Of a stretch of 57,494 bases of DNA, positions 3,374-34,113 are shown piece after piece. Made by a program: the position numbers and the translations under genes. Source of the DNA: a virus; IMG/VR virus record IMGVR_UViG_3300006198_000004; one strand, 5' to 3'. Under the pieces are notes generated by a model. It had not been told where the DNA came from, searched no databases, and saw nothing but the letters and a program-made list of their open reading frames with translations. Positions within the stretch are counted from its first letter, which is position 1. Each line of letters begins with the position of its first letter.

Positions 3374-4198
3374 TTAACGCCGGCGGCTACCCCCGTGCAG
3401 TTCTATCACGTTGAAAGATTTGAAACGGTCAACAAGTCTGCCCTCAAAGCGTTGTTTAAGCTCCTTGACAGTAAGGTTGCTTGTGATATGATAGCGTTTG
3501 CCGTGCTGCTGGTATATCTCATAACGGGCAAAGAGAAATTCATCCGTTATCTGGGTAAGCAACGTGCCGAAACTCTTTTGATTCTCGGTTGCAAGTCCTA
3601 AGTCATTAAGGCAAATGTTATACGGGTCCACACCGTCATAAGCCTCTTGGCGGCTTGCTCCTTGCAGTTCGTTGTAGGTGTACTTGTCAATATGCCCGAA
3701 AACCTTGTGGTAGTTCATAAGCTGGGTCATACTGATATTGCGAAACTGATTCACGTTGCTTGTCGCTTGGAGATAGTCGGCGAATACTTGCATAAGCAAT
3801 GTTTTACCCGTTCCGGGTTCACCTATCAAGAGTATGTTTTTGTGTATCTTGTAGTTCTCATTTGGAAACACAAGCTCGGCGAGGGGGCAGTCGTTGAAAT
3901 AGTATAACAAGAAACGCAAAACATCCTTGTTATGCTCATCAACCATGAAACGTGAAAACTCACGCAGCATATAGTTGTTACCCATGCCTATAACCATATT
4001 GGCGTGTACTTGGTATTCCTGCTCGTCTGTAAGGTCATACTTAAAACCTTTCAGCATAGCCTTCCTCCGGCGCATCACCAGATTGCGGGCCTGTTCCTGC
4101 TGGAGCTTGTAACGCTCCTGTTGCATATCCCGGAGTAGCTGGAGTGCCTCCTGCTGATTCTGGGGTAGTCGGAGATTTTGTTGGTTTACAAATTCCAT
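3374..4198 (-). CDS. DnaC/IstB-like AAA+ ATPase (putative helicase loader)
   Basis: It has a Walker A motif (GEPGTGKT) and follows the replication-initiator-like gene. The start is uncertain, with in-frame ATGs at 4126, 4075 and 4060. Confidence 0.65.
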   Translation of the reverse strand: MEFVNQQNLRLPQNQQEALQLLRDMQQERYKLQQEQARNLVMRRRKAMLKGFKYDLTDEQEYQVHANMVIGMGNNYMLREFSRFMVDEHNKDVLRFLLYYFNDCPLAELVFPNENYKIHKNILLIGEPGTGKTLLMQVFADYLQATSNVNQFRNISMTQLMNYHKVFGHIDKYTYNELQGASRQEAYDGVDPYNICLNDLGLATENQKSFGTLLTQITDEFLFARYEIYQQHGKRYHITSNLTVKELKQRFEGRLVDRFKSFNVIELHGGSRRR

Positions 4199-4925
4199 AT
4201 CTTTGTTGTTTTTCGTAGTAGCTATCCGCTACCCACGATAGGATTGTTCTGTAATGGCTTTTATATCGTTTACCTTTTGAGCCTATGTAGTTATCAAGAA
4301 TTTCTATCATGCCCTTTGCGGCCTCTTCTCCGTATTTCTCGCAGAGTTTGGCGTATTCGTCACGGGTCATTGATACAAATTCCCCATACTTGTATTTCTT
4401 AGCTTTCTCGGCCTTTGCCTTTTGTTCCGGGGTCATTTCTGGAGCTTGGGGCAATTCCTCATCATCGAATAATTGAGGTTGTGGCGGCTCTTGCTTGTTT
4501 TCGGGGGGAGGCTCAACGATTACGGGCGCAGGCGTTTCGGGTAATTCCGCTTGTTGCTCAATTACCTTGCGCATGGTTATCTCGCCACCCTTGCGGCCGG
4601 CGGTGCGCCTTATTGCGCTTATGCGCTCTTTTCTCACCATTTCGGGGGAGTAGTAAGCTCCTTTGTCATCAACCGCCAATAGACCGTTCTCAACAAGAAT
4701 TTCAAGTGCTATCGGGTCAATATCCAGAGTTCTTAATATCTGCCCTTTGGTGTAGAGTTTTCCGTTGGGATATGCCATAATCCCCCTTGTGGGGCTTTCC
4801 CACAGATAGCAAAGCATAGTTAGCCACATCCCCCTTATTTCGTAAGAGAGATTATTGATACGGGGGCTGTCTAACCATTCCCCCGTATCAATAGGCATTA
4901 GGGATTTGCTCCGCTTGTTTGCCAT
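4041..4925 (-). CDS. Replication initiator / DnaD-like replisome organiser
   Basis: The C-terminal YGEFVSMTRDEYAKLCEKYGEEAAKGMIEILDNYIGSKGKRYKSHYRTILSWV segment resembles DnaD or phage replisome-organiser domains. It lies upstream of the DnaC-like ATPase. Confidence 0.55.
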   Translation of the reverse strand: MANKRSKSLMPIDTGEWLDSPRINNLSYEIRGMWLTMLCYLWESPTRGIMAYPNGKLYTKGQILRTLDIDPIALEILVENGLLAVDDKGAYYSPEMVRKERISAIRRTAGRKGGEITMRKVIEQQAELPETPAPVIVEPPPENKQEPPQPQLFDDEELPQAPEMTPEQKAKAEKAKKYKYGEFVSMTRDEYAKLCEKYGEEAAKGMIEILDNYIGSKGKRYKSHYRTILSWVADSYYEKQQRYGICKPTKSPTTPESAGGTPATPGYATGALQAPAGTGPQSGDAPEEGYAERF

Positions 4926-4941
4926 AGGGGATTTGCAGTCT

Positions 4942-5691
4942 TTACGCCTCCAGAATGGCGATGTCGGGGGCTATCCCGCGGATTTCGTTCAGCACTCGGT
5001 CAATGGCCGTGTCGCGCCACTCATCGGAAATTTCCTTTGCGCCGGGCGATACGAGCTGTAAGAACACCTCGCCGTCCGTAAGGTAGTGGTCAAATTCCAC
5101 ATCGAAAGTGGTCTTTTCCGGCCCCTTGAAAATAGGGATTTTCACGGTGAACGACTTGGGCAGGTTGCTTTCTACCGTCTGGCGATAGACCTCGGCGCGA
5201 GAGCCGGACGGGTCATGCTGCTTTTCGATTTGAGATTGGGCGTTGGCTTTGAAATTCTTGAGGGCCGATACGAGTTTCATGCACTGCTCTTTGTCCTCAA
5301 AGGTAGCACGATTGAGGCGTATGAATTGCCCCAGTTTGGCGGGTACCCAGCCGGCGTTGGGGTCGTTGATACCGAATTTCTTGAACACCTCGGAGAGTTC
5401 GGCGGTGCCGGAGATTGTGGCTTTGTTGTAGGGGTCGCTTTCGTTGACAATAAGCGTGATTGTGTACTTTTCACGCTCCACCAGAATTTTTGCCTTTTTC
5501 TGCTCGATTGTGTCAACTCGCTTCCTCAGCCAGTCCAGCGGTGTTGAGAGAACACCTGCCACGTCCGTACTTACGGGGGCTTTCTCATCCAGCACTTTGC
5601 CAGCTACGCCCTCGCGGTAAACTATCACGATAGGCTTTTCACCCGTGTAGTTTTCGATTGTGAGATTGATTTTGTTGTTATTCTCATCCAT
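4942..5691 (-). CDS. Hypothetical early protein
   Basis: It is a long ORF in the operon context. I recognise no secure motif. Confidence 0.5.
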   Translation of the reverse strand: MDENNNKINLTIENYTGEKPIVIVYREGVAGKVLDEKAPVSTDVAGVLSTPLDWLRKRVDTIEQKKAKILVEREKYTITLIVNESDPYNKATISGTAELSEVFKKFGINDPNAGWVPAKLGQFIRLNRATFEDKEQCMKLVSALKNFKANAQSQIEKQHDPSGSRAEVYRQTVESNLPKSFTVKIPIFKGPEKTTFDVEFDHYLTDGEVFLQLVSPGAKEISDEWRDTAIDRVLNEIRGIAPDIAILEA

Positions 5692-5718
5692 TGTTGTAAG
5701 GATTAAGTTGGTGAATTG

Positions 5719-6153
5719 TTAATCATCCGTGCCGGTGCGCAAAAAACGCGCAGCCTGAATGATGTTGCGTTGTCTTTCTTCGGGTGTCATGGCACGTTCC
5801 TCTATCTTGTAGCCGTCAGCGGAGTAGTAGGCTGTTCTACCCGCCTCAACGTCAACAAATTTGAAAGTGTCGGCCGTTACCCACTCGCCACGGGCTTTCA
5901 GCTCATCAAGAATTTTGCCCCGACGTTCAAGCAAAGGCTTGATACGGCCTTTGATGTCGGCACGCACTTGTGCAAGCTCATCTTCAAGCTCCGCCACTTG
6001 GATTGACACGGATTCAAGCTCGGCGCGGCGGTCGTTAACCTCGTCTTGGTTGAAAGAGCGCGTAAAACTACGCGGCTCTATCTGGTCGCAGTTGTCGCGC
6101 AGCATTTGCTCACGAGCTTCAACCGGGTCATTGGGAAACATTACATCTTGCAT
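5719..6153 (-). CDS. Hypothetical coiled-coil early protein
   Basis: The ORF sits in the operon and has a charged heptad-like segment (ELESVSIQVAELEDELAQVRADIK). Confidence 0.5.
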   Translation of the reverse strand: MQDVMFPNDPVEAREQMLRDNCDQIEPRSFTRSFNQDEVNDRRAELESVSIQVAELEDELAQVRADIKGRIKPLLERRGKILDELKARGEWVTADTFKFVDVEAGRTAYYSADGYKIEERAMTPEERQRNIIQAARFLRTGTDD

Positions 6154-6183: not shown

Positions 6184-6798
6184 TTATTCAAGGTGGCCGC
6201 CCACGGTGAAATTGTAGGCATAGGCTTCAGCCCACAATTCCACGAATTGCTTGCCAAAGTATTCTGCCTTTTCCTCGGTGTCAAGGCACAAGCGGAACGC
6301 CCCATACGCATACGCCCACGAGCTACGACGGCGCGCAAGCAGAGAACCGAAACCCGCAAGCGCGCCAGCGCACGCATGGGCAGACAGGAGGGCACCCCGT
6401 TCATCATCGCTCATGTTGGAGATTTCGCCGGGGGTCCAGAGTGCCATTACCGGGTACCACCACACTTTGCTACCGTCAGCCGTGGGCTGGCATTTGTTCT
6501 CGCCGCCCCATAGAGCTTTGCAAATATGCTCCAGCTTCATTTGGGCGATAATATGGTTAGGTACTCCGGCGGCTACGAGCTTTTCAACGTCCAGACTTTC
6601 GCCAAGAGCAACGCAAGCGTCCTCGTAGGAGCGAATTGTGGTATAGTCTGAAAGACTTGGTGCTGGTCGGGAGGGTGTTGCAGTTGTTTCGTTATCCCCT
6701 ACGAGAACAGCGAGAATTTTGCGCGTGTTGTCATCGGCCATTGCATAAGCCGCCTCATAGTTCGCGCTTGTGATTTTGAGTTCTTTGTTTTCGCTCAT
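6184..6798 (-). CDS. DGR target protein 2 (small C-type-lectin-fold-like variable protein, no signal peptide)
   Basis: Residues GALLSAHACAGALAGFGSLLARRRSSWAYAYGAFRLC align with the TR-encoded GAILSANANNGANAGFGYLNANNRSSWTNANGAFRFY. The DNA differs from the TR only at TR adenines. Confidence 0.85.
   Translation of the reverse strand: MSENKELKITSANYEAAYAMADDNTRKILAVLVGDNETTATPSRPAPSLSDYTTIRSYEDACVALGESLDVEKLVAAGVPNHIIAQMKLEHICKALWGGENKCQPTADGSKVWWYPVMALWTPGEISNMSDDERGALLSAHACAGALAGFGSLLARRRSSWAYAYGAFRLCLDTEEKAEYFGKQFVELWAEAYAYNFTVGGHLE
6285..6398 (-). other. DGR variable region VR2 (remote)
   Basis: My hand alignment to TR 19998-20111 shows about 18 substitutions. All fall at plus-strand T positions of the TR, which are A on the coding strand. 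Confidence 0.85.
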
Positions 6799-6936
6799 CG
6801 TCTAATTGTTTGAGTTTATTGATGTTAATTTTTAGTCATTCGTATTGCATTTGCCACTCTAAGGCTCTTTGTCGGATTAGGTGGCAAGAGGTCTAATATC
6901 ATCGGAATATGTCTTACCAATTCCGATATTACGTTG

Positions 6937-7389
6937 TCAGCTACCGGTATCATTTGTGCGCCAATATTTATCCGGGTCTGGTATTTCGATACCGAGAAAT
7001 TCACGTCCGTACTCCCGCAGCTTTTCGCAATAAGTTGAGAATTGCACGGTGTCCATTGTGGCGGTCGAGCTTGGAAATTCCACTATTTCGCCCGTGTGTC
7101 GATTAACAACACTCTCTTTGGCGATAATGGATTTGAAAAACTCATGCACCTGCTCCACCGTGGTAAACTCCCAGCCGGCCTCTAAAAGACCGTCTAAAAG
7201 CATGGGATAGATGCAACCCCAGAGCCAACCGTTTTGGTCGTTGGTGCGCGGCTTGCGGATTTTCTTAACCTCAATATGGTAAAGTCCATCGCATACCTGC
7301 GCAAACCACTCGTATAGGGGTCGGAGATTGAAACGCCCGCTTATCTTTTCTACCATAACCTTTGCCATATCAATACTTGGAAATGTCAA
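6937..7389 (-). CDS. NinB/Orf-like recombination mediator (tentative)
   Basis: The PRTNDQNGWLWGCIYP motif resembles the RSxxQNxxLW signature, and the gene sits in the recombination module. Confidence 0.4.
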   Translation of the reverse strand: MTFPSIDMAKVMVEKISGRFNLRPLYEWFAQVCDGLYHIEVKKIRKPRTNDQNGWLWGCIYPMLLDGLLEAGWEFTTVEQVHEFFKSIIAKESVVNRHTGEIVEFPSSTATMDTVQFSTYCEKLREYGREFLGIEIPDPDKYWRTNDTGS

Positions 7390-8098
7390 GAGTTAAGCCC
7401 GGATTTGCGGCATACACAACCTTACCTGTCAATCGTTCTATCTCGCTTATGAAATGCTCTCGGTCGCTATTCTGCGCGGATAGGTGCAAAAGCACGATAT
7501 TCTGAACGAGCGATAGGTCATGCTCACTAATTACGCGCTTGCAAGTGTCAAGCTCCATGTGCGAGTTAGGCAGTCGCTCAATCTGACTTTTGAGCGTGTA
7601 GCCCTTATTCACGGCCTCAAGCAACTTGTAGTTGGAATAGTTGCACTCAATCAGCAAGTGGCTTAAATTCGGGAATATTTGCAAGCAATCGCAACTATCG
7701 GTAAGGAACATCAAGCGGCCACATTCGGGGTGCATGATATGATAGCCCACACAAGGCACATCGTGAAATGCGGGGAAAGGCAACACCTTAAACCGCCCCA
7801 GCTTGTAGCCTTTGCCCGGTCGTATGGCTATTGCACGAGAGCCGGCCACCTGCTTTGCAGTCCATACCTCCGGCAATGCCAGTGTTGTAATTCCACTATC
7901 AACCATGTTACGAATATATTTGGCGTGGTCGTTGTGCTGGTGAGTGATTAGGCAGCCCGCCACCTTGCGGAGATTGAATCCCAAAGCCTTTTTGACTTTC
8001 GGAAAAGCAATACCGGCCTCAAGTATCAAAGCCTCTTTGCCATTGTCGAGAATATAGCAATTACCGGCTGACGAGCTACCTAACACTTTCAGTTCCAT
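7370..8098 (-). CDS. Metallo-beta-lactamase-fold hydrolase/nuclease
   Basis: It has the HxHxDH motif (ITHQHNDHAKY) and lies next to RecT. Confidence 0.8.
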   Translation of the reverse strand: MELKVLGSSSAGNCYILDNGKEALILEAGIAFPKVKKALGFNLRKVAGCLITHQHNDHAKYIRNMVDSGITTLALPEVWTAKQVAGSRAIAIRPGKGYKLGRFKVLPFPAFHDVPCVGYHIMHPECGRLMFLTDSCDCLQIFPNLSHLLIECNYSNYKLLEAVNKGYTLKSQIERLPNSHMELDTCKRVISEHDLSLVQNIVLLHLSAQNSDREHFISEIERLTGKVVYAANPGLTLDISKY

Positions 8099-8110
8099 TT
8101 GTCGAGCGTG

Positions 8111-9082
8111 TTAAAATCCACATTCGATTACTTGTGCTTCCTCACTCTCAACCTCAGTGGGGGCAGGTGTAATGTCCTCATACTCCACCGTGGTTGCGTC
8201 AACCGCTTGTGCGGTCGTTGCGCTGGCAGTGTCGGCGGTCGGAGCTTTGACAACGCTTTGCGTTGCGGCCCCGTCATCGCTATCAAGTGCCTGCTGGAGT
8301 TCCACGGAGAGATAGCCATATTTACTTAGTAGATTTCTTAGTACGGTCTTAATCGCCATGCCGTGAAAGTTTCCGAGCCAGCCCAGAGAGCCGCTATCGG
8401 CTACCACGGGGAGCTTTGAAAGCTCCATAAGCGACTGAACGGTTACATCACGATTGCCCTTGATTGCTTTTGAGTAGCGTTTGGCGTGTATGGCAATTTC
8501 CTCAACACTCATGTAGAGTGCCTTGTGATAGCCGTTGAGCAATTCGATATAGGCAAAGTAGCCTATAACGGTTTCGCTCTTGCGGTCTCCGTCTAAGTCG
8601 ATTTCGCCCGTGAGCTTGGATTTCTTTTTGAGTTCGCCCTCATACACCACATCGGCGTTGATAATGCGATACTGACCCGTGCGCATTGCGAGTTGATATA
8701 AGCCCTTATAGCCTATCTGGAAAGTCGGCTCATACTGCTTGCACTTGGAGCCGTCCGGCAATGTAACAGTGTTGTTGTAGGCTATGATGAAAGCCTGTCC
8801 GAGAGCCTTGTTGATAGGCAGGCGCAGAACGGCCGCTTTTAAGGCTTCTTTCACTACGAGGGTAGGGTCGCATAGCTGGAGCTTGCCGTCCGTGCTGAAA
8901 AGTTCCAGAACGGCCGCCATAAATGTTGAGGCGTTCTGCTGGAGGGCGTTCTCAAATTGCTTTTTGATTGCGCCATTGTTCAGCACCTCGTTAAGCTGGT
9001 TGACAGGCGATTTCTTTGCCGGTGCCGTCTGTGGAGCCGGCGCGGGTGCAGTCATCGGAGCTGCTTGTCTTGTCTGTGTCAT
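8111..9082 (-). CDS. recT: RecT-family single-strand annealing protein
   Basis: The central region is RecT-like (GYKGLYQLAMRTGQYRIINADVVYEGE; GYFAYIELLNGYHKALYMSVEEI). Confidence 0.8.
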   Translation of the reverse strand: MTQTRQAAPMTAPAPAPQTAPAKKSPVNQLNEVLNNGAIKKQFENALQQNASTFMAAVLELFSTDGKLQLCDPTLVVKEALKAAVLRLPINKALGQAFIIAYNNTVTLPDGSKCKQYEPTFQIGYKGLYQLAMRTGQYRIINADVVYEGELKKKSKLTGEIDLDGDRKSETVIGYFAYIELLNGYHKALYMSVEEIAIHAKRYSKAIKGNRDVTVQSLMELSKLPVVADSGSLGWLGNFHGMAIKTVLRNLLSKYGYLSVELQQALDSDDGAATQSVVKAPTADTASATTAQAVDATTVEYEDITPAPTEVESEEAQVIECGF

Positions 9083-9090
9083 TGTGGTAA

Positions 9091-11058
9091 CTATTGAATT
9101 GTTAGAGTTCTGTCATAGCTCACGCGCAGATTGATAACCTGCGAGATTGTGGGGATTACCTCATTGACACTTTCGCGGTTGTCAATAAAGATAGGCGCGG
9201 AAAAGCCTTTGGCTACGCATAAGGCGTTGATAATATCAAGCCCGGCATTGAGCTTTCCGGCGGCGTTCACATCGGGATAGGGGGTGCCGTTCACCGTGCA
9301 TACACAAGTGATTTTCTCGCCACCGTTCTTTTGCTCTTTGAGGAAAGAGAAAGAAACGTACTTGAAAAGGCCGTTGATACGCTCATAGAGCATTTCATCT
9401 TTGGCTTTGAGGAAGCGCGTGTAGGTGTCCTCCCAGCACTCCAAATCGGCTATGGCTTGATTGTTGGCAATCCGTTTTTCCTCTAACTCAGAGATTTCCT
9501 TTCGGCAGCGGGCGATTACCTCACGCTTACCCAGTCGGCGGTTGAGTTCGGCGATACTTTCCGACAACATGGCTTTTGCCTCTTGGAGTTCGCTTGTGTC
9601 GGCCGGCTTTACATCGGCGTAAATCTGGTTATTCAGTTCCTCTATTTCGTTGGCAAGCGCAACGCATTGAGGGTCGGCCCCGATTATTTCCTCAACATTG
9701 AGCGCGGCGGGAATATGCGCTTTGGCATATTCGATTTTGCCTTTCAGCTCCAGCACCCTGTCTTGGAGCGTTGAGATTTGCCCTGTAAGGCGCGTTTCAT
9801 CGGCCTTTGCTTGGTCGAGCGACTTGCGCATTGGTATTCCACGAGCCTGTATCTCCTTTTGGCGTTTGGCTTTGTCCTGCTCAAAGTTGCCACGGATTCT
9901 ATCAAGTGTTTTGGCGAGATTATCACCTTTCAGCGGTTCGCCACAAGTGGGGCATACGAGGCTTTCTTTGGTCGGCTCAACGAATACCTCTAACGCCACG
10001 GCCTTAAAGTCCTCGCGTAAGCCTACAATATCCTTGTCGAGCTTGGATATAGTGCCTTGCACGGTTTCAAGCTCACGGGTCTTAGTGGCAATGTTACGCT
10101 CCATTGTGGCAAGCTCACTCTCCATTGCCTCTAAGTCGGAGATAGCTTTGTTACGGTCGGAATTGGCTTGCACACGGATTTCATTCTGACGGTTGCCTAA
10201 CGCCAGACGTTTTTCTCCCTGTAAGCGCATAAGTTCAACCTTGCGCTTGTTGGCGGCATTGGCCGCTGCGCTCACATCGGAAAGTTGAGCGTCAATGTCG
10301 GCGAGGCTCTTTTTCTTATCGGCAAGCTCTTTCTCCAACGCGGCCCAGTCCTCATCTTCGGGCATTAGCTTTTGCGCCATTTCGATATTTGAGGGTATGG
10401 TTGTGAGCGCATCATTGCAACTCTTTTTCTTGGCTGCTACCTCTTGGGCGTACTTGATTAAGGACGTGCCGTTGATATGGTCCAGCAACGCCATAAATTC
10501 CGGGCTTAAAGCGGCCACCTCGTCATCGGATATGTTGCCTACCATTTGGAGCAACATTTCTTTCTGGTCCTCAGCCGACAGGCGGGGGAATAGGTAGGGA
10601 TTGGTTATCAGCCTAAATACATCTTCGGGGATAATCTCGGAGATTTCGGCTTGATACTCCTTTTTGGTACCGCAACGCACATCGTTAATGAAAAACTGTG
10701 TTTCGTCTTTCATCACCTCATCGGTGGTGCCGTTTACCTTGTTCCATTTCTCCACAAGGCAGCGTTGCAGTTTAATCTCTCTCCCGTCCACGTCAAACAC
10801 GCCAGTTACGGAGTGTTCCAGACGATAGATAGGTTTTCCGTTCTTGTCGAGGGTCTTGACATTAAAGCCCCCGTTACCATCGCCACGGCCTGCGCTATCC
10901 TTTCCGAATAGCAGCCACAAGTAAGCATCATAGAGCGTGGTCTTGCCCGTAGCGTTACCGCCTGTAATCGTAACCACGTCACTATCAAAGCTCACATCAA
11001 AGGAGCGTACCCCCTTGAAATTCACCAGCGACAGCGATTTTAATTTAATTGTTCTCAT
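9091..11058 (-). CDS. SMC/SbcC-like AAA ATPase with long coiled coil
   Basis: The N-terminal Walker A is in the RecF/SbcC-type context (LVNFKGVRSF...ITGGNATGKTTL), followed by a long coiled coil and a CxxC hinge. The start was taken at MRTIKLKS (11058). Confidence 0.75.
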   Translation of the reverse strand: MRTIKLKSLSLVNFKGVRSFDVSFDSDVVTITGGNATGKTTLYDAYLWLLFGKDSAGRGDGNGGFNVKTLDKNGKPIYRLEHSVTGVFDVDGREIKLQRCLVEKWNKVNGTTDEVMKDETQFFINDVRCGTKKEYQAEISEIIPEDVFRLITNPYLFPRLSAEDQKEMLLQMVGNISDDEVAALSPEFMALLDHINGTSLIKYAQEVAAKKKSCNDALTTIPSNIEMAQKLMPEDEDWAALEKELADKKKSLADIDAQLSDVSAAANAANKRKVELMRLQGEKRLALGNRQNEIRVQANSDRNKAISDLEAMESELATMERNIATKTRELETVQGTISKLDKDIVGLREDFKAVALEVFVEPTKESLVCPTCGEPLKGDNLAKTLDRIRGNFEQDKAKRQKEIQARGIPMRKSLDQAKADETRLTGQISTLQDRVLELKGKIEYAKAHIPAALNVEEIIGADPQCVALANEIEELNNQIYADVKPADTSELQEAKAMLSESIAELNRRLGKREVIARCRKEISELEEKRIANNQAIADLECWEDTYTRFLKAKDEMLYERINGLFKYVSFSFLKEQKNGGEKITCVCTVNGTPYPDVNAAGKLNAGLDIINALCVAKGFSAPIFIDNRESVNEVIPTISQVINLRVSYDRTLTIQ

Positions 11059-11665
11059 TCTTGAATATTTTATTGAGTGGTAATCCTTTGTTGTTTCGGT
11101 ATCGGATTGTTCCGGGTGCGACACCTAAGCGTTGCGCCCATTCGCTTATAGTCAGAGTTTCACCATTGAAAGTTATTTTATGATTGTTTCTTTTGTTTCG
11201 TGCTTGTGTTAAGCTATCTACCCAGCGGCAATTATCCGGCTCATAGCCTAAATCGGGATTTATACGGTCTATTGATAAGCCCTCTTGATAGCCGTTGTTG
11301 ATAGCCCACGTTTTGAAATTATCATAATTTTGCCACTCGGAGCAGAGGGCGATTCCACGGCCGCCATATTGAGGATAATTTTTGTGGCGTTGATATTCAC
11401 AACGCTGTTTCATACCTCGCCACACATGATACAACCTCGTATTGCTTTCTCCGTGTTTTGTATTTCGTGCGGTCGCTTTTTCAGAGGATATGCACCCGCA
11501 GCTTTTTGTATTGCCACGTTTAAGACTTGCGCCTAATACGGATAAGGTTTTGCCACAATCGCATTGGCATAGCCACAAACTTTGTCCTCTACGGTCAGAG
11601 CCATTTCTGGCAATAACTACCAACCTACCGAAGCGTTGGCCGATAAGATTACTTGCTTTGCTCAT
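11045..11665 (-). CDS. AP2/HNH-associated DNA-binding protein
   Basis: The pattern GRLVVI...WLCQCDCG...SCGC, then YHVWRGMKQRC and YGGRGI..C.EW, is typical of phage AP2-like or HNH-associated proteins. Confidence 0.55.
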   Translation of the reverse strand: MSKASNLIGQRFGRLVVIARNGSDRRGQSLWLCQCDCGKTLSVLGASLKRGNTKSCGCISSEKATARNTKHGESNTRLYHVWRGMKQRCEYQRHKNYPQYGGRGIALCSEWQNYDNFKTWAINNGYQEGLSIDRINPDLGYEPDNCRWVDSLTQARNKRNNHKITFNGETLTISEWAQRLGVAPGTIRYRNNKGLPLNKIFKNENN

Positions 11666-12564: not shown

Positions 12565-13050
12565 ATGCCAATCAAGATAGACCTTAACGGCCTCCGAAAA
12601 TCTTTAGGTTTGAAGCAGGCCGAATTTGCCGAAAAGATAGGCATTAAACAAGCCTATCTATCTGAGTTGGAGACAGGTAAAAAGCCTATTCCGACCAATA
12701 TATACAACTCTCTCGTGGATGTGTTTGGCGAGGAAACTTGCGATACGTTTGCAATATCGCAAGAGGAAGCCATAAGCGGTCAACATTTCCACGGCCCGAT
12801 AACGGGGGATAACCCACAATTCGCCGGGCATGATTTCAATAACAACCCGCCATGCAATTTTGGCATCGAGGTTGAAAGGGTAATCGCGGCCATGACTGCA
12901 CAAGCAGACCTCACAAAAGAAGCTCACGAGATAACCAGACGCGCACAAGCCCAAGTTGACCGAGCGCAAGCGCAGGTTGACGTGGCACAACAACAAATGA
13001 ATCGCCTATTGGCTATAATTGAACAGAAACTAAATATTGTACCAGTATGA
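12565..13050 (+). CDS. XRE-family HTH repressor (CI-like) without an S24 peptidase domain
   Basis: The N-terminal HTH is LRKSLGLKQAEFAEKIGIKQAYLSELETGKK. The C-terminus is a Q/A-rich coiled coil (AQAQVDRAQAQVDVAQQQ), and no Ser-Lys autocleavage motif is visible. Confidence 0.75.
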   Translation: MPIKIDLNGLRKSLGLKQAEFAEKIGIKQAYLSELETGKKPIPTNIYNSLVDVFGEETCDTFAISQEEAISGQHFHGPITGDNPQFAGHDFNNNPPCNFGIEVERVIAAMTAQADLTKEAHEITRRAQAQVDRAQAQVDVAQQQMNRLLAIIEQKLNIVPV

Positions 13051-13845: not shown

Positions 13846-13953
13846 CCCCCACACCCCCTATTTTAATATACATATACTCTTTTACTACTACTCTTAATAT
13901 AGTGTGTATATATACGCGCGCAGGCGCATTATGCGCGCAGGCGCGAGGCAAAA

Positions 13954-14329: not shown

Positions 14330-14331
14330 CG

Positions 14332-15606
14332 CTATTTTTTAGGCTCGTCAACACTTGGTAAATCCAATGCCAGAAAATCAAGCACGGCGCGGTTGGCCGC
14401 ATCTATTTTATCCCAGCTCTTGCGAATGTAAATGTCGGTTACGCGCATATTCTCGTCAACATGGTTTAGGGCAGTATGCACCGTGTATTTATCAACCCCA
14501 GCGTCATTGTTGGCTATCGTAGCCCAACTATGCCGGGCCGCGTAAAACTCCAAATCATCAACGCCGATAATCTTACCTATGCGTTTCAATCCTTTGTTGA
14601 GCGCAGCGCAAAATGTATCGGTGGATGAATAGAGCCGATAGAAATTGAACACCCTTTGCCCCGTGGTGTCGCGGTACTTATCCACAAGAGCCTGCGCCTC
14701 CGGCTCAATCCTTATGGAGATTTCCGCTTTGTCGGCACGGCGGTTGCGTGTCTTTTGGCGTTGGTAGGTTATGCGGCCGTCCGCGATGTCGGTTGCGGCG
14801 AATAGGTCGGCGGCGTTCATGCCTACAAGAAAGAAACTCAGAAGAAACACGTCCTTTGCAAAATTGAACCGATTCACTCCGGGTTGTAGTATGGTCGTAT
14901 ATGGAACTTGCGCAAAAGCCCGCATCTGCTCGACTGACAAAGCGCGTTTGCGCGATAGCGAGGGCTTTGGTATCTCTACCTTGTTGAACGGAGAGAAAGG
15001 TATGCGGATAATTCCGGCTTCCTCATCGTTAAATTCTTTCTTAGCCCGGTTATACATTGCCCGGAGTTGCGCAAGATACAGGCTTTGGGCGCGGTCTCCT
15101 TTCTTGCAGTCCTTACGCGGTGGCTGCTTGGCTATCCATGCTATCCAGTCATTGAGGAATTGCACCGTGATTTCCTTAATGCTGACAACCTCACGCTCGG
15201 CAAATCGTTTCAGACTGTTTATTGCCACCTTGTAGGCTTTGGCGGTCCCGCCTCGTCCGTCTTTCTCCAGCTTGGCGATGAAAGCCTCGGTGTAGGCTAC
15301 TATATCCAAGTCAAAGGGTTTTTCTCTATCTTTTGCCAGCAACTCCACGACCTGCTCCACGGTCATATCGTCCAGACCCTCGCCCACGCTGTTGCATATA
15401 GCGCGATAGCGGCGCAATGTGTCCTCTACCATGTCGATGTACTTTTGGTTTTTGAGCTTGAGGGCGCGTGTCAAATCCTCTTTACCTACATACCACGGAG
15501 TAGAGAGATACTTTTTGCGCTGCTTGTGAGTAACGCGGATTTTTATGTTATAGGTGCCGTCGGCTCTCTTTTGATGAGCATACACCTCTGCTTTGAAAGT
15601 TGCCAT
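14332..15606 (-). CDS. int: Tyrosine recombinase (phage integrase, Bacteroidota type)
   Basis: The N-terminal arm-binding-like segment is MATFKAEVYAHQKRADGTYNIKIRVTH. The C-terminal catalytic region is ARHSWATIA...ALNH...TDIYI (Tyr). Confidence 0.9.
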   Translation of the reverse strand: MATFKAEVYAHQKRADGTYNIKIRVTHKQRKKYLSTPWYVGKEDLTRALKLKNQKYIDMVEDTLRRYRAICNSVGEGLDDMTVEQVVELLAKDREKPFDLDIVAYTEAFIAKLEKDGRGGTAKAYKVAINSLKRFAEREVVSIKEITVQFLNDWIAWIAKQPPRKDCKKGDRAQSLYLAQLRAMYNRAKKEFNDEEAGIIRIPFSPFNKVEIPKPSLSRKRALSVEQMRAFAQVPYTTILQPGVNRFNFAKDVFLLSFFLVGMNAADLFAATDIADGRITYQRQKTRNRRADKAEISIRIEPEAQALVDKYRDTTGQRVFNFYRLYSSTDTFCAALNKGLKRIGKIIGVDDLEFYAARHSWATIANNDAGVDKYTVHTALNHVDENMRVTDIYIRKSWDKIDAANRAVLDFLALDLPSVDEPKK

Positions 15607-18351: not shown

Positions 18352-18788
18352 TCGCTATCCACCATATTGCGGATAGCCAGACGGTCGCGCAAAAAGTCCT
18401 CGTAGGGCTTCTTGTATTCTTTGGGTAGCAGACCCAGCACTGCGCTCTGATACTCGTTCACCAGCTTGCTCTCGGTGTTGGCCGAGTACTTGGCAGATAG
18501 CAGGGTGCTGAAAATGTTGTCTGCGGTCGTGGGATATTCCACACGGAGGCTGTCGTACTGGAACATCTTGCCTGTTGCAGTCTCCGGGTCGGTGGCGATT
18601 GTTACGCCGCCCATGTCATCCTTGACAACATCAACCTCTACGATGTTGTGGTTGTAGAGTACGGTACCTTGCCCGTTGTTATACGGGTCAATTACCTGCG
18701 GCCGTGTTTCCGATAGCAGCCCGATTGATAAAATACTTTTTTCCATTTTGAATAACGGTGTTAAAGATGTTTTCTTTATGTTGCTCAC
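18318..18788 (-). CDS. Hypothetical protein (start uncertain; overlaps the RT 3' end)
   Basis: The ORF is in the operon, with an alternative ATG at 18746. It does not resemble a helical-bundle Avd. Confidence 0.4.
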   Translation of the reverse strand: MSNIKKTSLTPLFKMEKSILSIGLLSETRPQVIDPYNNGQGTVLYNHNIVEVDVVKDDMGGVTIATDPETATGKMFQYDSLRVEYPTTADNIFSTLLSAKYSANTESKLVNEYQSAVLGLLPKEYKKPYEDFLRDRLAIRNMVDSDCATLNIPMDL

Positions 18789-19911
18789 TACACCTTAAAG
18801 CCCACCCGTATTCCGAGGGGAATAGATGTTTAATGTCTTGTTGGTCGCGGATAGGGTTGTTGCGGGCCACCTTGATTGATTTCTTGTAGAATCTCAAAAG
18901 TATGCTCTTACGCATCAACACGCCATAGTGGTTTTGCTTGAACCCCACATAGTCAATGCTCCTATCATCAACCGGGAAAATCTGCCAAGTGTGCTTAAAC
19001 TCCACTTTTAGCTCCGCAGCCAGATATAGCCCCGCCATGTCGAGAACGAAATGCAGTGCAACCGAGCTTTCAGCCAGAAACACCATATCATCCATGTAGC
19101 GGAAATAATAGAGCTTGCATCCGAATTTGAGCCTTACCAACGCCGCCAATTCCTCAACAACCCAGTGGTCGAAATATGCGAAATAGAGATTGGCTAAGTA
19201 TTGGCTGGTGTAGTTGCCTATTGGCAGACCTTTTTCTTTACCGTTGCTATCTATAATCTTATCTAACAGCCTTAAAAGTTGTTCATCCGCAATGGTTATG
19301 CGGATTATGAGCTTGAGGGCGGCGTGGTCTATATTGTCGTAGCATTTTTTAATATCGGTCTTGAGGCACATTCTCGTACCTCGTTTGTCGCGTTTTAGAG
19401 CGTGGCGCACGTCAAGCATACATTTGTGAGTGCCTCGGCCCTTGATACATGAATAGGTATGCTCAATAAATATGTGGGTCCAGTGCTGCCCCAGCACGTT
19501 TATGATGCAATGGTGAATAATCCTATCTGGAAAGAACGGAGCAATCATAATGTCGCGCTCTTTCGGGTCATATATTTTCTTTACGCGATACTCGCCCGGC
19601 TGGTATGTTTCATACCTTAACATAGCCCATAGCGCATCCATATTCTCCAATATGTGTTCATTGAACCGCTTTATATCCGAGTGGTCGCCTTTGCCTTTCT
19701 GCGCCATATATTGAGCGCGGCAAAGATTCTCACAAGTATATAGCAGCCAATACACATTATACAGCTTTTTGGTCGGTGAACAAAAGAGTTTTCCAGTGTC
19801 CCCGATATAAAGCCCGCAATCCTCAAAGTCGGAATATTGAGGTTGATATGTATGCGTCTTTTTGCTCATTGTGCCGTTAGTCAAAAACAGAGTTTTGGAT
19901 TTCCTACTCAC
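18688..19911 (-). CDS. DGR reverse transcriptase
   Basis: It has the catalytic motif YMDDMVF (YxDD), the DGR-type motif LPIGNYTSQYLANLYF, and an adjacent TR/VR pair. Confidence 0.92.
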   Translation of the reverse strand: MSRKSKTLFLTNGTMSKKTHTYQPQYSDFEDCGLYIGDTGKLFCSPTKKLYNVYWLLYTCENLCRAQYMAQKGKGDHSDIKRFNEHILENMDALWAMLRYETYQPGEYRVKKIYDPKERDIMIAPFFPDRIIHHCIINVLGQHWTHIFIEHTYSCIKGRGTHKCMLDVRHALKRDKRGTRMCLKTDIKKCYDNIDHAALKLIIRITIADEQLLRLLDKIIDSNGKEKGLPIGNYTSQYLANLYFAYFDHWVVEELAALVRLKFGCKLYYFRYMDDMVFLAESSVALHFVLDMAGLYLAAELKVEFKHTWQIFPVDDRSIDYVGFKQNHYGVLMRKSILLRFYKKSIKVARNNPIRDQQDIKHLFPSEYGWALRCSEQHKENIFNTVIQNGKKYFINRAAIGNTAAGN

Positions 19912-19995
19912 ACTGTCTTAATCACTATTTTTTTACCAAGAGGTAAGGTGTCGGCGGTCAACAGTCTGAAATATCTTATTCAAAGAATTGAAACC

Positions 19996-20111
19996 ACGGT
20001 AAAAGCGGAACGCCCCATTCGCATTCGTCCACGAGCTACGATTGTTCGCATTCAGATAACCGAAACCCGCATTCGCGCCATTGTTCGCATTGGCAGACAG
20101 GATGGCACCCC
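19996..20111 (-). other. DGR template region (TR)
   Basis: It is homologous to VR1 and VR2. It is adenine-rich on the minus strand, with Asn AAY codons (ANANNGANAGFGYLNANNRSSWTNANG). Confidence 0.88.
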
Positions 20112-20221: not shown

Positions 20222-21586
20222 TCAAAAACGGCACAAGCGGACCGCCCCAAACGCACCCGTCCACGAGCGACGATGGGTCGCATACAGAACACCGAAACCC
20301 GCAAGCGCGCCAGAGGTCGCAAGGGCAGACAGGAGGGCACCGTACCAGCCCGAAGCATTGACACCAGCCTGCCAGAGATAATCACACAATCCTTGATTGG
20401 AGCTGGCTCCTACACTTGTGGGGAAAGTGAAACCGTCATAGGAAAAGCCGAAATTCCACTGATAGCCATCGCTACGGGGTAGGTCGGTGATAGCAACGTA
20501 GCCGTCCGGCACAGTTGTTGCGTTGTCGGCCGGGGACGTAAATTTGGTAGGGTCAGAGCAGCCATAGGCCGTTGTCTTTCCATTTTCACTATCCGGCGAA
20601 TAGTGGATAAGAACGTCATCGGCCAAGAACCACAAGTATTCATACGGGGCTTCAAGTCCACGATAAGAGTTGACTTGCACAACCTTGTCGCCGCCGGTCC
20701 AGCCTTTGATTGTATAAGACACGCGGCCCGTGTTGTTGCCGAGGGTTGCAGTCACGCCGCAGGGGATAAACGGCCTATAACCGCCCCATGTGTTCCACTG
20801 GCTGCCGTCAACAGCGGGACCACTGCCGAGGCCGCCTTGATGAAAGCCATCAGCCGTGAGCGTTTCGTTGTAGGTGTCCTGACAGTGGAGAGAAGCATAT
20901 TCGATGCGCTGGAGCCATGCAATTTCCATATAGGCACGAGCCATGCCTAAGTGAGTGCCATTCTTGCAAGCCGGCCTTGCGCCGGCCTTAGAGATTGAGG
21001 TGCGGGGCATACCGAGCTGAGAATTGTATGTGCCGTCCTTGCTTGCGTCCGAGGCACCGCTGCCGCCACGGAAATTAGTAGCGTTGGGGAGCAACGACAA
21101 AATGCCGTTTGCATCGCGCAAAAGCTCTCCGTCTGCCCCCCACTGGAGCCAGCACCCGGAAACGGCCGTATTGTTGGCAATGTCGATAGTCGCGCCCCAC
21201 GGCGATAGGGTCTTTCGGGTCATACGCACAAAGCCGGGCAGAGCATACTCGGAGATAGCCAAAGCCCACTGTGTGCCGTTCACCTCAAAGCGGGCATAGT
21301 ATTCCGGCTTTTCAAGCATTACATTTCCGTCCGTTGTGTCGAGCTTTGCGGCCGCCCCGGAATCCTTTTTACGAGAATCGTTCTGGTGGAGATAGTATTT
21401 TACCGAGCCGTCCGTGTTCTCAACAAAACGCCTCAGTTTCTTTTGGATAGGGAGTGTGCGGTGCAAGTCCATGTTGCCGATACGGGTCAGCAAATAGTCC
21501 TTGCTGGTAAAATCGCCTTGCACACCATACCACATATCGTATGGATATTGCGGCTTAGTGGAGCCGCTGCCTAAGATTAAGCCCAT
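20222..21586 (-). CDS. DGR target protein 1 (tail-fibre/receptor-binding-like, C-terminal C-type-lectin-fold VR)
   Basis: The VR lies at the extreme C-terminus (GALLSALATSGALAGFGVLYATHRRSWTGAFGAVRLCRF*). The gene is positioned after the tail tip genes. Confidence 0.8.
   Translation of the reverse strand: MGLILGSGSTKPQYPYDMWYGVQGDFTSKDYLLTRIGNMDLHRTLPIQKKLRRFVENTDGSVKYYLHQNDSRKKDSGAAAKLDTTDGNVMLEKPEYYARFEVNGTQWALAISEYALPGFVRMTRKTLSPWGATIDIANNTAVSGCWLQWGADGELLRDANGILSLLPNATNFRGGSGASDASKDGTYNSQLGMPRTSISKAGARPACKNGTHLGMARAYMEIAWLQRIEYASLHCQDTYNETLTADGFHQGGLGSGPAVDGSQWNTWGGYRPFIPCGVTATLGNNTGRVSYTIKGWTGGDKVVQVNSYRGLEAPYEYLWFLADDVLIHYSPDSENGKTTAYGCSDPTKFTSPADNATTVPDGYVAITDLPRSDGYQWNFGFSYDGFTFPTSVGASSNQGLCDYLWQAGVNASGWYGALLSALATSGALAGFGVLYATHRRSWTGAFGAVRLCRF
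20228..20341 (-). other. DGR variable region VR1 (3' end of adjacent target gene)
   Basis: My hand alignment to the TR shows about 17 differences at TR adenines and 2 at non-adenine positions. Confidence 0.85.
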
Positions 21587-21880: not shown

Positions 21881-21923
21881 AATTAACTGGGTTAATCTAC
21901 TGCAAAGTTAATAATAAATGCGT

Positions 21924-31400: not shown

Positions 31401-33875
31401 TCTTGCCAAGATAGCACGGTCAATAATACCATCTTCCTGCATGAATACATCGTGGAACGCATCATCAAGCACTGAATAATCAGTAATAAACGAAGCGTGT
31501 TGTGCATCAATTCCCGCATCGGTCATTATCTGTGTTATCTGGTCGCGTAACTGTTGTTTAGCCCTTTCCTTTTCATCGTCTGAAAGGTTCACCATTTTAG
31601 GCAAAGCGTCCTCAATTATTTGCCGGATATGCCCGGCAAAAGCCGTGGCGTTCTGTTGAATATCATCGCTATCAGTAGAATATCCAATGCCTAAAATTTC
31701 ATTCCAATTATAGTGGTGAGCCTCTTTGAGTTCCTTTTGGATTGATTTCTCAATCTCATCCAAAGCCGTAGAATACTCGTTTTGAATATTAGCGAGTGAA
31801 TTAGACCTTTCAGTTTCGCCCGATTGACGTTTAATAGCGTCAGTGAGTTTATCCATAGCCTCCTGCACCTCTCGTGCGGACGCTCCAACTTGTAACGCAT
31901 TTAAGCCGTATTCCTCTAACTGCGCATTTAGTTCTTGAAAGGCTTTCTTATAGGCATTACTATTATGGTCGGTATTTTGTAACACCGATACAAGCATTTG
32001 GAGATTGGATAACTGACTTTCTCCACTCTCGCCAAATTTTTTCATACTATCCGCCGCATCATCCTCGCTATCGCCCAGCATGGTAAATGCACTTATCAAT
32101 AGGCCGACAAGAGATAGAATTGCGCCGATAGGGTTAGCTACCATTGTAGCCCAGAGAGCTTTTAACCCTGCTGTCAATTTACCCGTAGCGGCCGATAATA
32201 TGCTTGTGGCTGCTGTCTGTGCAGTCTTAGCGGCGGTGTCGGCTACCGATGCGGCCCGACCTTGTGTGGTTGCAAGAGTTTCAAGCTGTTTTTTCTTTGC
32301 ATAGAAATCCGATTGAGCCGCCAATGCCGCTTTGCGAGTAATAGCTTGCTGGTCCACGGCCGCCTCAAGTCTTTTTTGTGCAGCGGCTATGGCTGTCGCA
32401 TTTCCTGACTGTTGCGCCCAATATACCTCATAACGAGCCGCTTCAACCGCTTGTGTTGCTGATATAGCCTTTGACTTGGCGGCTTCAACTGACACGGCCG
32501 CCTCTTTTACGGTTGTGCGCATGGTTTCCAAAGAGGCCGCTTGGCTTGCCCGTTTGGATTGTACCTCTTGGATAACGGCAGCTCGATAGGCCGCACTTTT
32601 GGCGGTCAAATCCATTTTTGACAATGCCAAACGCTGCTCGGCCGAAAGAACACTCAACGCTGCGGCTTCATATCCTGCGCTTGATGTAGTAAGTCCGATG
32701 TTGGATAGGTACTCTTGCTGCTGAACAGTCAACAGGCTCGTAATAGCCCCTATTCGTAGCTGCTTGACAATAGCCGCTTGTTGTTCCGCGCTTAGGGTAG
32801 CCTCCAATGCCGTAAAATGTGCATTTTCGGCGGCGGTCATAGCTTTCTTTTGAGCAAGAGCCGTGCCGTTGAGAGCTGCCTCGGCTTTCATAAGTACGAG
32901 TTTTGCGCTCCTTACGGTGTTGTCAAGCACTGCAATGCCGGTGTAGCCTTTGGTCGCAACACTATTGAGTACGATAGCGGCTTTCACTGACCCGTAGCCG
33001 ATAGCAACCGCTTTCAGTATGCGCACCAACGTATCCATGTGTTCCACAAGGTATGTGGCACCGGCAATAGCCCCGGAGAATAAGCCCTCGTTGGATTTAC
33101 CCCAGTCGTTAAGAACAGTGTCCCAAGCGTCTTGTAGGTTTGCAATCTGTCCCGTGAGAGAGGCCGATTGTTTTTCCATGAGGTTGTAGAATTGGCCGCC
33201 GGAATTAGTCATCTTGTTTAAGACCTCTTCGACATCGGCAAAGCCGATTTTGCCGGCCGACACCATTTCATTTATCGCATCGGCTGTTGTATGGTATTTC
33301 TCCGCAAGCTCTTTTACAAGTGGAATACCACGGCCCGTAAATTGTCGCACGTCTTGCGCATAGAGCCTGCCCTGTACCATTGTTGTACCGTATAGGTAAA
33401 CAATATCATTAAGAGGTATGGAAAGGCCGCTGGCTATGTTTCCAAGCCTTACAAGCGTGTCATTCACTTTGTCGGCACTCACACCATAAGCCATGAGCTG
33501 CTTTGCACCCTCAGCCACGCCCATAAGGTCAAATGGCGTTTTGGCGGCGGTGTCAACCATCTGTTGCATGAGCGTAGTAGCCTTATCGGTACTGCCCAGC
33601 ATTGTTTCAAAGGCAATTTCCAGTTGCTGGAATTGTCCGCGTGTCTGTATAATGGAATTTACGAGGCCGTGCATACCCTGTCCTACAAGGTAATAGGAGA
33701 TATAACGCCCTGCGCTTTCGGCCATTTTTCTAAATGAATCCTCAACCTCTCCAACCTCGCTAATAGCGGTATTGGAGAAATTTCTAATCTGTCGCTCCAT
33801 TGACTGAGCCGACACATTGAAATCATCTATATTGAGCGTTGCCCTAAATCCTAACGCGCCGCCTAAGTTTTCCAT
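28440..33875 (-). CDS. Tail tape measure protein (1811 aa)
   Basis: The N-terminal TMP core is AKTPFDLMGVAEGAKQLMAYGVSADKVNDTLVRLGNIASG. It also has a long coiled coil, a TM-like segment and the expected position. Confidence 0.88.
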   Translation of the reverse strand: MENLGGALGFRATLNIDDFNVSAQSMERQIRNFSNTAISEVGEVEDSFRKMAESAGRYISYYLVGQGMHGLVNSIIQTRGQFQQLEIAFETMLGSTDKATTLMQQMVDTAAKTPFDLMGVAEGAKQLMAYGVSADKVNDTLVRLGNIASGLSIPLNDIVYLYGTTMVQGRLYAQDVRQFTGRGIPLVKELAEKYHTTADAINEMVSAGKIGFADVEEVLNKMTNSGGQFYNLMEKQSASLTGQIANLQDAWDTVLNDWGKSNEGLFSGAIAGATYLVEHMDTLVRILKAVAIGYGSVKAAIVLNSVATKGYTGIAVLDNTVRSAKLVLMKAEAALNGTALAQKKAMTAAENAHFTALEATLSAEQQAAIVKQLRIGAITSLLTVQQQEYLSNIGLTTSSAGYEAAALSVLSAEQRLALSKMDLTAKSAAYRAAVIQEVQSKRASQAASLETMRTTVKEAAVSVEAAKSKAISATQAVEAARYEVYWAQQSGNATAIAAAQKRLEAAVDQQAITRKAALAAQSDFYAKKKQLETLATTQGRAASVADTAAKTAQTAATSILSAATGKLTAGLKALWATMVANPIGAILSLVGLLISAFTMLGDSEDDAADSMKKFGESGESQLSNLQMLVSVLQNTDHNSNAYKKAFQELNAQLEEYGLNALQVGASAREVQEAMDKLTDAIKRQSGETERSNSLANIQNEYSTALDEIEKSIQKELKEAHHYNWNEILGIGYSTDSDDIQQNATAFAGHIRQIIEDALPKMVNLSDDEKERAKQQLRDQITQIMTDAGIDAQHASFITDYSVLDDAFHDVFMQEDGIIDRAILARQAFEEQTEATNAAADSYARMGNTAEQTAPQIDIASLSLTELHDLATKISGTEVAIDIAVYGYQDAMAMLRDVQAQIGQKQNDLNTETGINSEIQNLKKLRGEAQLGSQAWKDYNTQIDTLQKKLDSATGRNKRGGGRSGGHNGANDAARAADTLAQKQLEAEKRVEESRIAVMEEGYAKRKATLDLQHKEALDRIDKEEKELIKARKSAGKGGLSQEEKDGFAQRRAYENQSYQQSTNKLFEGELDYKKKQYELYWRWVENMGKDVADKQFASLLQSGNSFKQYLEKQIAELQAKKAAGTITEGESNFLISLNVQYDELTGAKTALDAFRESVNAAINRSQTLAEKLAAVADAKRKLENGESGIISDDDRAAASLDLSQREAELQKEVHETVLNDYRSFEEQRQSITDQYALLRAEAERMGDEERIRLINKAEKEALSALNTAFLQQSDSWKKLFSDLDTLSVGQISKLIKDVEQQLAAGNIQLSPVDFKAVIDSLTRAKERIQQLNPFSALDTFFNDYLKARKKLAAAKAALAKGEGSKEDVENAEREVKAAANGITQSVEKVTDITTECASSLQSMFDALGMDGVADGLGTAIELMGQLGNAAASVGKFMSGDIIGGVTGMISSITSVVGIFAKLHDKKYEKRIQELQKQIDALERSHSRLERAFNNTYWVFNDEERAGFEQNIKLIEDQIAALEKQRETARRTWDFAKYAQLTAQIKDLNKQLSKAKEGDDMLGLYEQQKQSLREQQELMRQQIQAEKDKKKTDNNKIQQWNDAIEQIEQQIEDLDRQMMETFAGTTTKEAIDQYADAIVDAYCAGEDAAKALGDTTREVLKKAVIDALKRQFLAKAMDEAVQYLGEAMSDGVLTKEEKARFEYLTRMAGETFTNALDAVGDWIKDIEDDTASDPLAGAVAAMSEETGGVIAGRLNAFIINQSEQTSVLREQLLQQSAISQNTANTNAILSRIDATLKRIETKDSSLLSQGIS

Positions 33876-34108
33876 TACATATAACCTTTGAGATAGTTTT
33901 TAATATCTTCTTTTGTTGTGAGTTCTTGGGTGATTGTCTGGCTTTCATCAATCGGGTTGCCGTTTTCGTCAAGTGGCACTTCCTTTGCCCTCGGCGCATC
34001 CGCAATCATCAGTTGCACGTTGAGCCATGAAATGCCCCATAGCAAGTATTCATAGCTCCACCCAAAGTTTCGTAGTAGTTCGCCACGATTACCCCACGGA
34101 GAGTTCAA
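33875..34108 (-). CDS. Tail assembly chaperone, downstream part (TTG start in the track; possibly made by frameshift)
   Basis: It sits directly between the chaperone-like ORF and the tape measure gene. Its frame is -1 relative to 34114-34761 and stays open upstream. Confidence 0.4.
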   Translation of the reverse strand: MNSPWGNRGELLRNFGWSYEYLLWGISWLNVQLMIADAPRAKEVPLDENGNPIDESQTITQELTTKEDIKNYLKGYM

Positions 34109-34113
34109 CCCGG

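Follow-up and report, generated by a model that had tools for sequence, protein, structure and literature searches.

Results

The window carries a DGR with one template repeat and two variable repeats

The DNA analyzed here (the window, that is, the whole stretch of 57,494 nucleotides) begins and ends with an exact 77-nt direct repeat (1-77 = 57418-57494), and because of this terminal overlap we read it as a complete, circularly closed phage genome of ~57.4 kb. This gut phage of Bacteroidales is temperate, encoding an integrase (14332..15606) and a repressor, the HTH regulator described further below. A repeat search of the whole window returned a single direct-repeat family in three copies (6282-6398, 19995-20111, and 20227-20343), with spacings of 13713 and 232 nt. 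The repeats and the genes associated with them, all of which lie on the minus strand, are as follows:

6184..6798, minus strand: target 2 gene, 204 aa, 22.3 kDa, pI 5.0, phrog_11581
6282..6398, minus strand: VR2, codons 134-173 of target 2; 18/18 core mismatches at TR adenines
6282..6300, minus strand: IMH-like 3' end of VR2 (GGGGCGTTCCGCTTGTGCC), inside the coding sequence, encoding ..GAFRLC
18688..19911, minus strand: DGR reverse transcriptase (RT), 407 aa; Pfam RVT_1 (E 2.8e-15) and phrog_1423 (E 7e-109)
19995..20111, minus strand: TR, 84 nt upstream of the RT gene; A at every position where VR1 or VR2 differs
20222..21586, minus strand: target 1 gene, 454 aa, phrog_5302 ("tail protein"), adjoining a 1528-aa tail-fiber-like gene
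20227..20343, minus strand: VR1, at the extreme C-terminus (last codons) of the tail-module target 1

The middle copy of the repeat has A, on the coding strand, wherever either of the other two copies differs from it, and we therefore assign it as the TR. The RT translation contains IGNYTSQ and YMDD, the former conforming to [I/L]GxxxSQ, a hallmark motif of DGR reverse transcriptases. Searches of the small ORFs around the RT and TR against Pfam, PHROGs, and NCBIfam gave no match to an Avd accessory gene. Because a recognizable Avd is not present in every DGR, the missing match does not exclude this locus from the class, although the cassette is not textbook-complete. Uncharacterized conserved ORFs flank the RT and target 1 (17935-18788 and 21599-21880; phrog_11557, 156 aa; phrog_29953, 138 aa; phrog_22750, 93 aa), and these are candidates for an unrecognized accessory factor. 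On the side of the tail target, two 90%-identity clusters of target 1 homologues (P0271 and P0312) contain 36,228 and 42,382 sequences; cluster sizes inflated to this extreme reflect the hypervariability of VR1.

VR2 differs from the TR only at adenines across its core

The sequence-only reading that preceded this analysis had proposed that a second VR of the same TR lies about 13.7 kb from it, with 18 substitutions confined to TR adenines and no other change in the core. The repeat search places this VR at the coordinates given above, and our recount was identical to the earlier one. Across the 103-nt core, VR2 and TR differ at 18 positions, all of them TR adenines (A>C 8, A>G 5, A>T 5), with 0 differences at non-adenine positions (hypergeometric P 1.3e-16). 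The VR1 core carries two T>G differences from the TR (~20290 and ~20242) besides its adenine changes, and the VR2 core has none, so that the remote target is the "cleaner" of the two.

The final 14 nt of VR2 contain three further differences from the TR (T>G, A>G, and G>T), the first two of which are common to VR1. As a result, both VRs have GCTTGTGCC at the 3' end and the TR has GCTTTTACC. Judged from the sequence, this asymmetry is the IMH/IMH* pattern expected of a DGR, which would set the direction of homing. A search for hairpins 3' of the VRs gave weak hairpins after VR2 and VR1 of the window (z about -1.9) and none that stands out after VR2 of the related phage Versailles; a hairpin downstream of the VRs is thus not clearly conserved.

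VR2 is hypervariable among natural variants

If VR2 is a working DGR target, natural copies of the gene should differ where TR adenines permit. A database search with target 2 returned 1611 homologues, and we read the variation from the best 120 of these 1611, all of which are 204 aa long and 94-97% identical. Among these 120 variants, the differences cluster at residues 141, 143, 144, 147, 152, 154, 156, 157, 162, 163, and 165, and target 2 is almost invariant outside the adenine codons of the VR. Changes at adenines alone can reach 15 residues from an AAY codon, and every one of the nine such codons shows 14-15 of them; taken together these codons show all 15, and residues outside the reachable set number 0. 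The other adenine codons behave likewise: TAT gives exactly Y/S/C/F, AGC gives S/R/G, and ACG gives T/A/S/P. In a second sub-lineage (13 IMG/VR contigs, ~60% identical), variation is again limited to the VR. Since the variation follows the adenine-reachable codon sets, VR2 is actively diversified in nature, and we are very nearly certain that it is an active remote DGR target. The polymorphism that the sequence-only reading had suggested looking for is thus present, and the opposite pattern, an invariant VR2 beside a varying VR1, which that reading had named as speaking against it, is not what we find.

These data also bear on the idea that VR2 has dropped out of use by the DGR, surviving as a decaying relic or as a copy of VR1 made by chance or recombination. 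In favor of this idea there is one observation, the distance between VR2 and the cassette, and nothing more. Every VR2-TR core difference lies at an adenine, the IMH of VR2 is intact, target status is kept in 7/7 genomes (see below), and more than 130 natural variants are hypervariable exactly along the adenine-reachable codon sets. We rejected the relic explanation on the basis of the natural variation in the 120 variants and the second sub-lineage, and we regard its probability as negligible.

Three smaller observations concern the edges of this pattern. Codon 137 (6388-6390) holds the first TR adenine (ATC, Ile), and here 120/120 variants and VR1 invariably read CTC; this probably marks the 5' limit of cDNA replacement. 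Trp161, whose codon (TGG) has no adenine, is replaced by Y/H/C/N in 11/120 variants, which suggests that the TR itself differs between sub-lineages. Finally, database homologues are often frameshifted or truncated exactly at the VR (P0124, P0137, P0141, P0142, and P0150; locus L061, 5295-5895), and such breaks fit assembly errors arising from VR heterogeneity within samples.

The remote VR is conserved in related phages

We compared VR and TR in seven genomes, namely the window, Versailles, LoVEphage, and four IMG/VR contigs, those common to the target 2 loci and to an RT scan of IMG/VR. The target 2 homologue carries a remote VR with adenine-only differences in all seven. In Versailles (ON453897; host B. 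caecimuris), the syntenic orthologue WAK79127 (L001, 10181-10762) is 51% identical to target 2, and its VR2 (10550-10656) shows adenine-only changes relative to the TR beside the RT and has the same IMH as the window. The Versailles RT lies 43 kb from this VR in the prophage map. We found no description of the Versailles DGR and its second target in papers that mention this phage. The LoVEphage (MW660583) homologue (33613..34197) is 31% identical, and between its VR (34003-34115) and the TR (49393-49501) there are 19 differences, all A>N; VR1 of LoVEphage lies in a tail-collar-fiber gene, and its IMH asymmetry is analogous to that of the window. The four IMG/VR contigs have 9, 18, 12, and 12 mismatches to their TRs, all A>N. 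In a larger set of 109 homologous loci, 98 encode a VR-like motif and 91 have the exact nucleotide motif TTCCGYTTGTGCC at the end of the VR; a few distant relatives have no VR.

Target 2 lies in a recombination and replication operon

The gene for target 2 is part of a tightly packed leftward operon, which starts at a divergent regulatory region at ~12.4-12.6 kb with small ORFs and ends at a DnaC-like loader. The operon and its regulator comprise the following:

12565..13050, plus strand: HTH regulator, transcribed divergently from the leftward operon and marking the lysogeny/early switch
6937..11665, minus strand: upstream operon genes (HNH endonuclease, SbcC-like ATPase, RecT, MBL-fold hydrolase, and NinB/Orf, by family assignment)
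9091..11124, minus strand: SbcC-like ATPase, upstream of target 2
8111..9082, minus strand: RecT, upstream of target 2
7370..8098, minus strand: MBL-fold hydrolase, upstream of target 2
6937..7389, minus strand: NinB, upstream of target 2
3374..6153, minus strand: downstream operon genes (144-aa phrog_12688, 249-aa phrog_11501, replisome organizer, and DnaC-like loader, by PHROG and Versailles annotation)

This agrees with the earlier description of a 204-aa gene beside NinB, MBL, and RecT and outside the tail module. No Bacteroides-type TAnnTTTG promoter motif occurs within 200 nt upstream of target 2. The sequence-only reading had also called for the context of homologues in related phages, and here the position in the operon proved stable: the order SbcC-RecT-MBL-NinB-target 2-p144-p249-replisome organizer on one strand is found in 75 of the 80 IMG/VR loci with a homologue. 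We examined two of the three IMG/VR loci with a differing context; a DNA methyltransferase is near the gene in both, and a DnaC-like loader is also near in one. The hosts of homologue-bearing phages are Bacteroidales (Prevotella sp. MGM2, Barnesiella, Lepagella, Bacteroides, Parabacteroides, Alistipes, and others).

This arrangement must be weighed against the possibility that target 2 belongs to the virion or otherwise acts outside the cell as an adhesin, for example a small accessory or decoration protein of the tail, whose gene happens to lie apart from the structural genes and which, like ordinary phage DGR targets, is diversified to bind receptors or mucus. Its VR is common to the tail-module target, and other phage DGRs with two targets (Bacuni, tentaclins) diversify two adhesin-like proteins. 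The conserved place of the gene inside the early operon argues against an adhesin, as does the presence of the gene among DNA-metabolism genes in three unrelated phage backbones. The properties of the protein itself, considered in the next section, bear on the same question.

Other features of these genomes were recorded along the way. Between NinB and target 2, a 59-aa ORF (6825-7004, minus strand; ELVRHIPMILDLLPPNPTKSLRV) overlaps NinB; it resembles the N-terminus of P0133, where it is apparently fused to a target 2 core, and the Versailles annotation has a small gene at the equivalent position. The isolate assembly of Barnesiella sp. WM24 (L136; NODE_17, 57,418 bp) contains a whole related phage as a separate contig, with a target 2 that is 79% identical, and in culture this phage may exist as an episome or be actively replicating. 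Just downstream of the 3' end of the integrase gene are two 84-nt direct repeats (13950-14033 and 14256-14339; 80% identical) with the palindrome-like sequences TTTTGCCTAAGCAAAA and TTTTGCTTAGGCAAAA, which may be attP arm sites or operator sites. In the late region, a 54-nt AT-rich intergenic repeat (21901-21954 and 55622-55675; 74% identical) is possibly a promoter or other regulatory element that occurs twice.

Target 2 is a small protein whose VR is followed by a conserved helix

Target 2 matches phrog_11581, a family whose function is annotated as unknown, over its full length (residues 6-200 of 204; E 2.6e-50), and the LoVEphage and Versailles homologues belong to the same family. It gave no match in Pfam, NCBIfam, or the PDB sequences, even with a 68-sequence profile; window-type proteins of both target families have no PDB or Pfam matches, sequence profiles of both families returned nothing from the PDB, and an 8-kb piece of the window had no megablast match among GenBank phages. 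An exhaustive search of 50%-identity representatives gave 222 clusters, mostly of 170-220 aa. In the family alignment, a variable N-terminal segment of 35-45 residues precedes a conserved core (..Y.TI.TYEDAC..LG, a long helix ..KLE.I..AL.G, and a strand Y.PWF.LYT), which is followed by the VR (G..AGFG........S...A..GxRLC) and then by a conserved C-terminal helix (E.A.YFG.QF..LW). The VR of target 2 is therefore internal (residues 134-173), and the 33 residues after Cys171 bear out the earlier estimate of about 30. The protein is acidic, and a Kyte-Doolittle scan revealed no hydrophobic N-terminus or transmembrane helix (the maximum 19-residue mean is 1.53 and falls inside the VR), in line with the earlier prediction that the protein would have neither a signal peptide nor a membrane segment.

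Several family members lack the VR motif and keep the N-terminal core and the C-terminal helix (P0159, P0163, P0166, P0174, and P0182; loci L161 and L162). Three of these (P0166, P0174, and P0182) end in a hydrophobic tail anchor, which would leave the domain in the cytoplasm; the genomic context of P0166 consists of 2-kb contigs only.

The AlphaFold2 model of target 2 has a pLDDT of 89.7 and a pTM of 0.78. In this model the VR is predicted to form a strand (138-141), a loop, a long strand (147-159), and a loop leading into a short helix. Foldseek searches with the model gave no match in the PDB (best E 0.75) and matched only uncharacterized gut-phage proteins in BFVD. We do not count this negative against a C-type-lectin fold, because a control with the tail target also failed: the target 1 model (pLDDT 80.7) had no PDB match at E<0.001, and Mtd (1yu4) appeared only at E 1.0.

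Comparison of the two target families clarifies a conflicting annotation. Within target 2, phrog_5302, the family of target 1, matches only residues 131-173 (E 0.0014), and profile-profile alignment of the two families is limited to 38 VR columns; the two scaffolds are therefore not detectably related. GenBank labels the Versailles orthologue WAK79127 a "tail protein," which would favor an adhesin, but the PHROG tail match on which this label rests covers the 38-43 VR residues and nothing else. We rejected the label, which on this comparison is almost certainly wrong. Moreover, no attachment domain is detectable in target 2, and the predicted lack of a signal peptide likewise speaks against export. 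Weighing these points together with the operon context, we consider an adhesin role unlikely, with roughly one chance in a handful of being correct.

Discussion

Relation to known two-target DGRs

The sequence-only reading had set target 2 apart from the usual virion receptor-binding targets of phage DGRs. Its novelty is overstated, as phrog_11581 has already appeared as a non-structural DGR target with defense-related neighbors (PMC8008677) and distal second VRs have been reported (PMC12629997). Target 2 is a real feature that adds a member to a family whose place among non-structural phage DGR targets is already in print. In Quimbyvirus, Benler et al. 2021 (PMC8008677) identified ORF 84 (ORF 80 in places) as a second, non-structural DGR target; its neighbors are a MutY-like enzyme, methyltransferases, and RtcB, and the authors suggested that it takes part in conflict between phage and host. 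They reported C-type lectin domains for both Quimbyvirus targets. Quimbyvirus belongs to the LoVEphage lineage, both being ~95% identical to a B. dorei CL03T12C01 prophage, and the LoVEphage gene at 33613..34197 is the gene of ORF 84, with exactly the same neighbors.

The Quimbyvirus/LoVEphage system resembles the window in three respects: the target is a full-length phrog_11581 protein with an internal VR and then a conserved ...YFGxQFxELW helix, the remote VR is adenine-only and shares one TR with a tail-module target, and the gene is encoded among DNA-metabolism genes. It differs in its backbone (71-75-kb "Quimbyviridae," whereas the window is a roughly 57-kb Versailles-like temperate phage), in its neighbors (methyltransferases, MutY-like, and RtcB, as opposed to NinB/RecT/SbcC and the replisome organizer), and in its RT, which is split over three frames in Quimbyvirus and is a single intact ORF in the window. 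Versailles is the closer counterpart, with a syntenic orthologue, a remote VR2, adenine-only changes, and the same IMH.

Other systems are related by position or by principle. Dahlman et al. 2025 (PMC12629997) found, in four species of induced Bacteroidota prophages, a distal second VR close to counter-defense genes. As in the window, the second VR is far from the RT cassette in a non-tail region, and the authors read it as part of an arms race; these prophages are described in one sentence and one figure, and the likeness to the window that they show is one of VR position. In the Bacuni phages (PMC8143477) and the tentaclin phages nd4 and nd12 (PMC10743442), one TR serves two different adhesin-like proteins, and the VR is thought to be a surface beta-hairpin usable in different scaffolds. 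Unlike target 2, those targets are fimbrial-tip-like, Ig-fused, or Mtd-like proteins presumed to bind receptors, and they are unrelated to it in sequence; both target genes lie within the DGR cassette in nd4 and nd12, and one target lies beside the RT in Bacuni. Finally, Doré et al. 2024 (PMC10907252) report that, in multicellular bacteria, cellular DGRs diversify cytoplasmic proteins with conflict or sensor functions. These are a precedent for binding domains that a DGR diversifies and that work within the cell as part of conflict systems, although the proteins are large bacterial multidomain NTPase-type proteins, unlike the small, single-domain, phage-encoded target 2.

Proposed mechanism and role

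Because VR1 and VR2 end in the same IMH, one RT and one TR serve both. In this mechanism, TR RNA is reverse-transcribed with adenine-specific errors, and the cDNA replaces VR1 in the tail gene and, independently, VR2 13.7 kb away in trans. Replacement of VR2 rewrites ~12 codons of target 2 (the nine AAY codons plus TAT, AGC, and ACG), for a theoretical diversity of ~4e13 protein variants, and the rest of the protein, including the conserved helix after the VR, stays constant. From its gene position and sequence, target 2 would be made with the early recombination and replication genes as a soluble intracellular binder. Its variable surface could then help the phage population keep pace with a variable intracellular partner, most likely a host defense or host-takeover target that differs between Bacteroidales strains; a cell-surface receptor would not be required.

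We hold the parts of this proposal with different confidence. A single DGR with two targets in trans, of which target 2 is an early, soluble, non-structural intracellular binder, is the account we judge probable. That the role of target 2 is both non-structural and intracellular, as its sequence and gene neighborhood suggest, seems to us slightly favored over the converse, and the early-use, non-receptor reading is plausible. Benler et al. 2021 gave the same reading for the Quimbyvirus homologue. A specific function in counter-defense is a more tentative suggestion. One point against a conflict role is that the lineage of the window has no methyltransferase/RtcB neighborhood of the kind that motivated the conflict hypothesis for Quimbyvirus. 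The ligand, in turn, could be extracellular since the VR module is common to a tail protein.

An intracellular protein might alternatively act against other mobile elements. Target 2 could be a diversified exclusion or recognition factor that binds proteins of incoming competitor phages, or proteins associated with DNA, and it would act in the lysogen or while the phage replicates. The temperate lifestyle of the phage, with its integrase and repressor, is compatible with such a role, as are the VR-less relatives that are tail-anchored membrane proteins and the putative antigen sensors diversified by cellular DGRs (PMC10907252). However, the gene sits in an operon that is normally repressed in the lysogen of a temperate phage, and no effector domain is attached to target 2. 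We therefore regard a factor against competitors as improbable, and more so than an adhesin, and retain the early intracellular binder as the preferred reading.

Implications

Large DGR surveys miss remote targets because only the surroundings of the RT are scanned, and Roux et al. 2021 state that their own global survey could not detect them; the general picture has therefore stayed one of host-range switching through tail proteins. To this picture the present analysis adds a second phage backbone in which target 2 is conserved, hypermutated, and located in the early recombination/replication operon. It adds that nearly all members in this part of phrog_11581 have kept the VR and IMH, and it demonstrates the natural diversification of VR2 at the level of codons. 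The conservation of VR and IMH strengthens the case for a second, non-adsorption function of phage DGRs. A caution also follows: neither a "tail protein" annotation nor a Foldseek negative can be relied on for these DGR targets.

Versailles encodes an orthologue and is active as a prophage of B. caecimuris I48 in gnotobiotic OMM12 mice, and it offers a tractable model. We suggest, as a possibility that we rate below even chances, that phrog_11581 is a widespread class of DGR-programmable intracellular binders, acting as an "antibody-like" counter-defense or host-takeover factor. If this is true, a minimal scaffold carrying the VR cassette of a tail fiber would let some phages neutralize or recruit a host protein that varies between strains, and it would be the first adaptive, hypermutating anti-defense mechanism known in a virus of bacteria.
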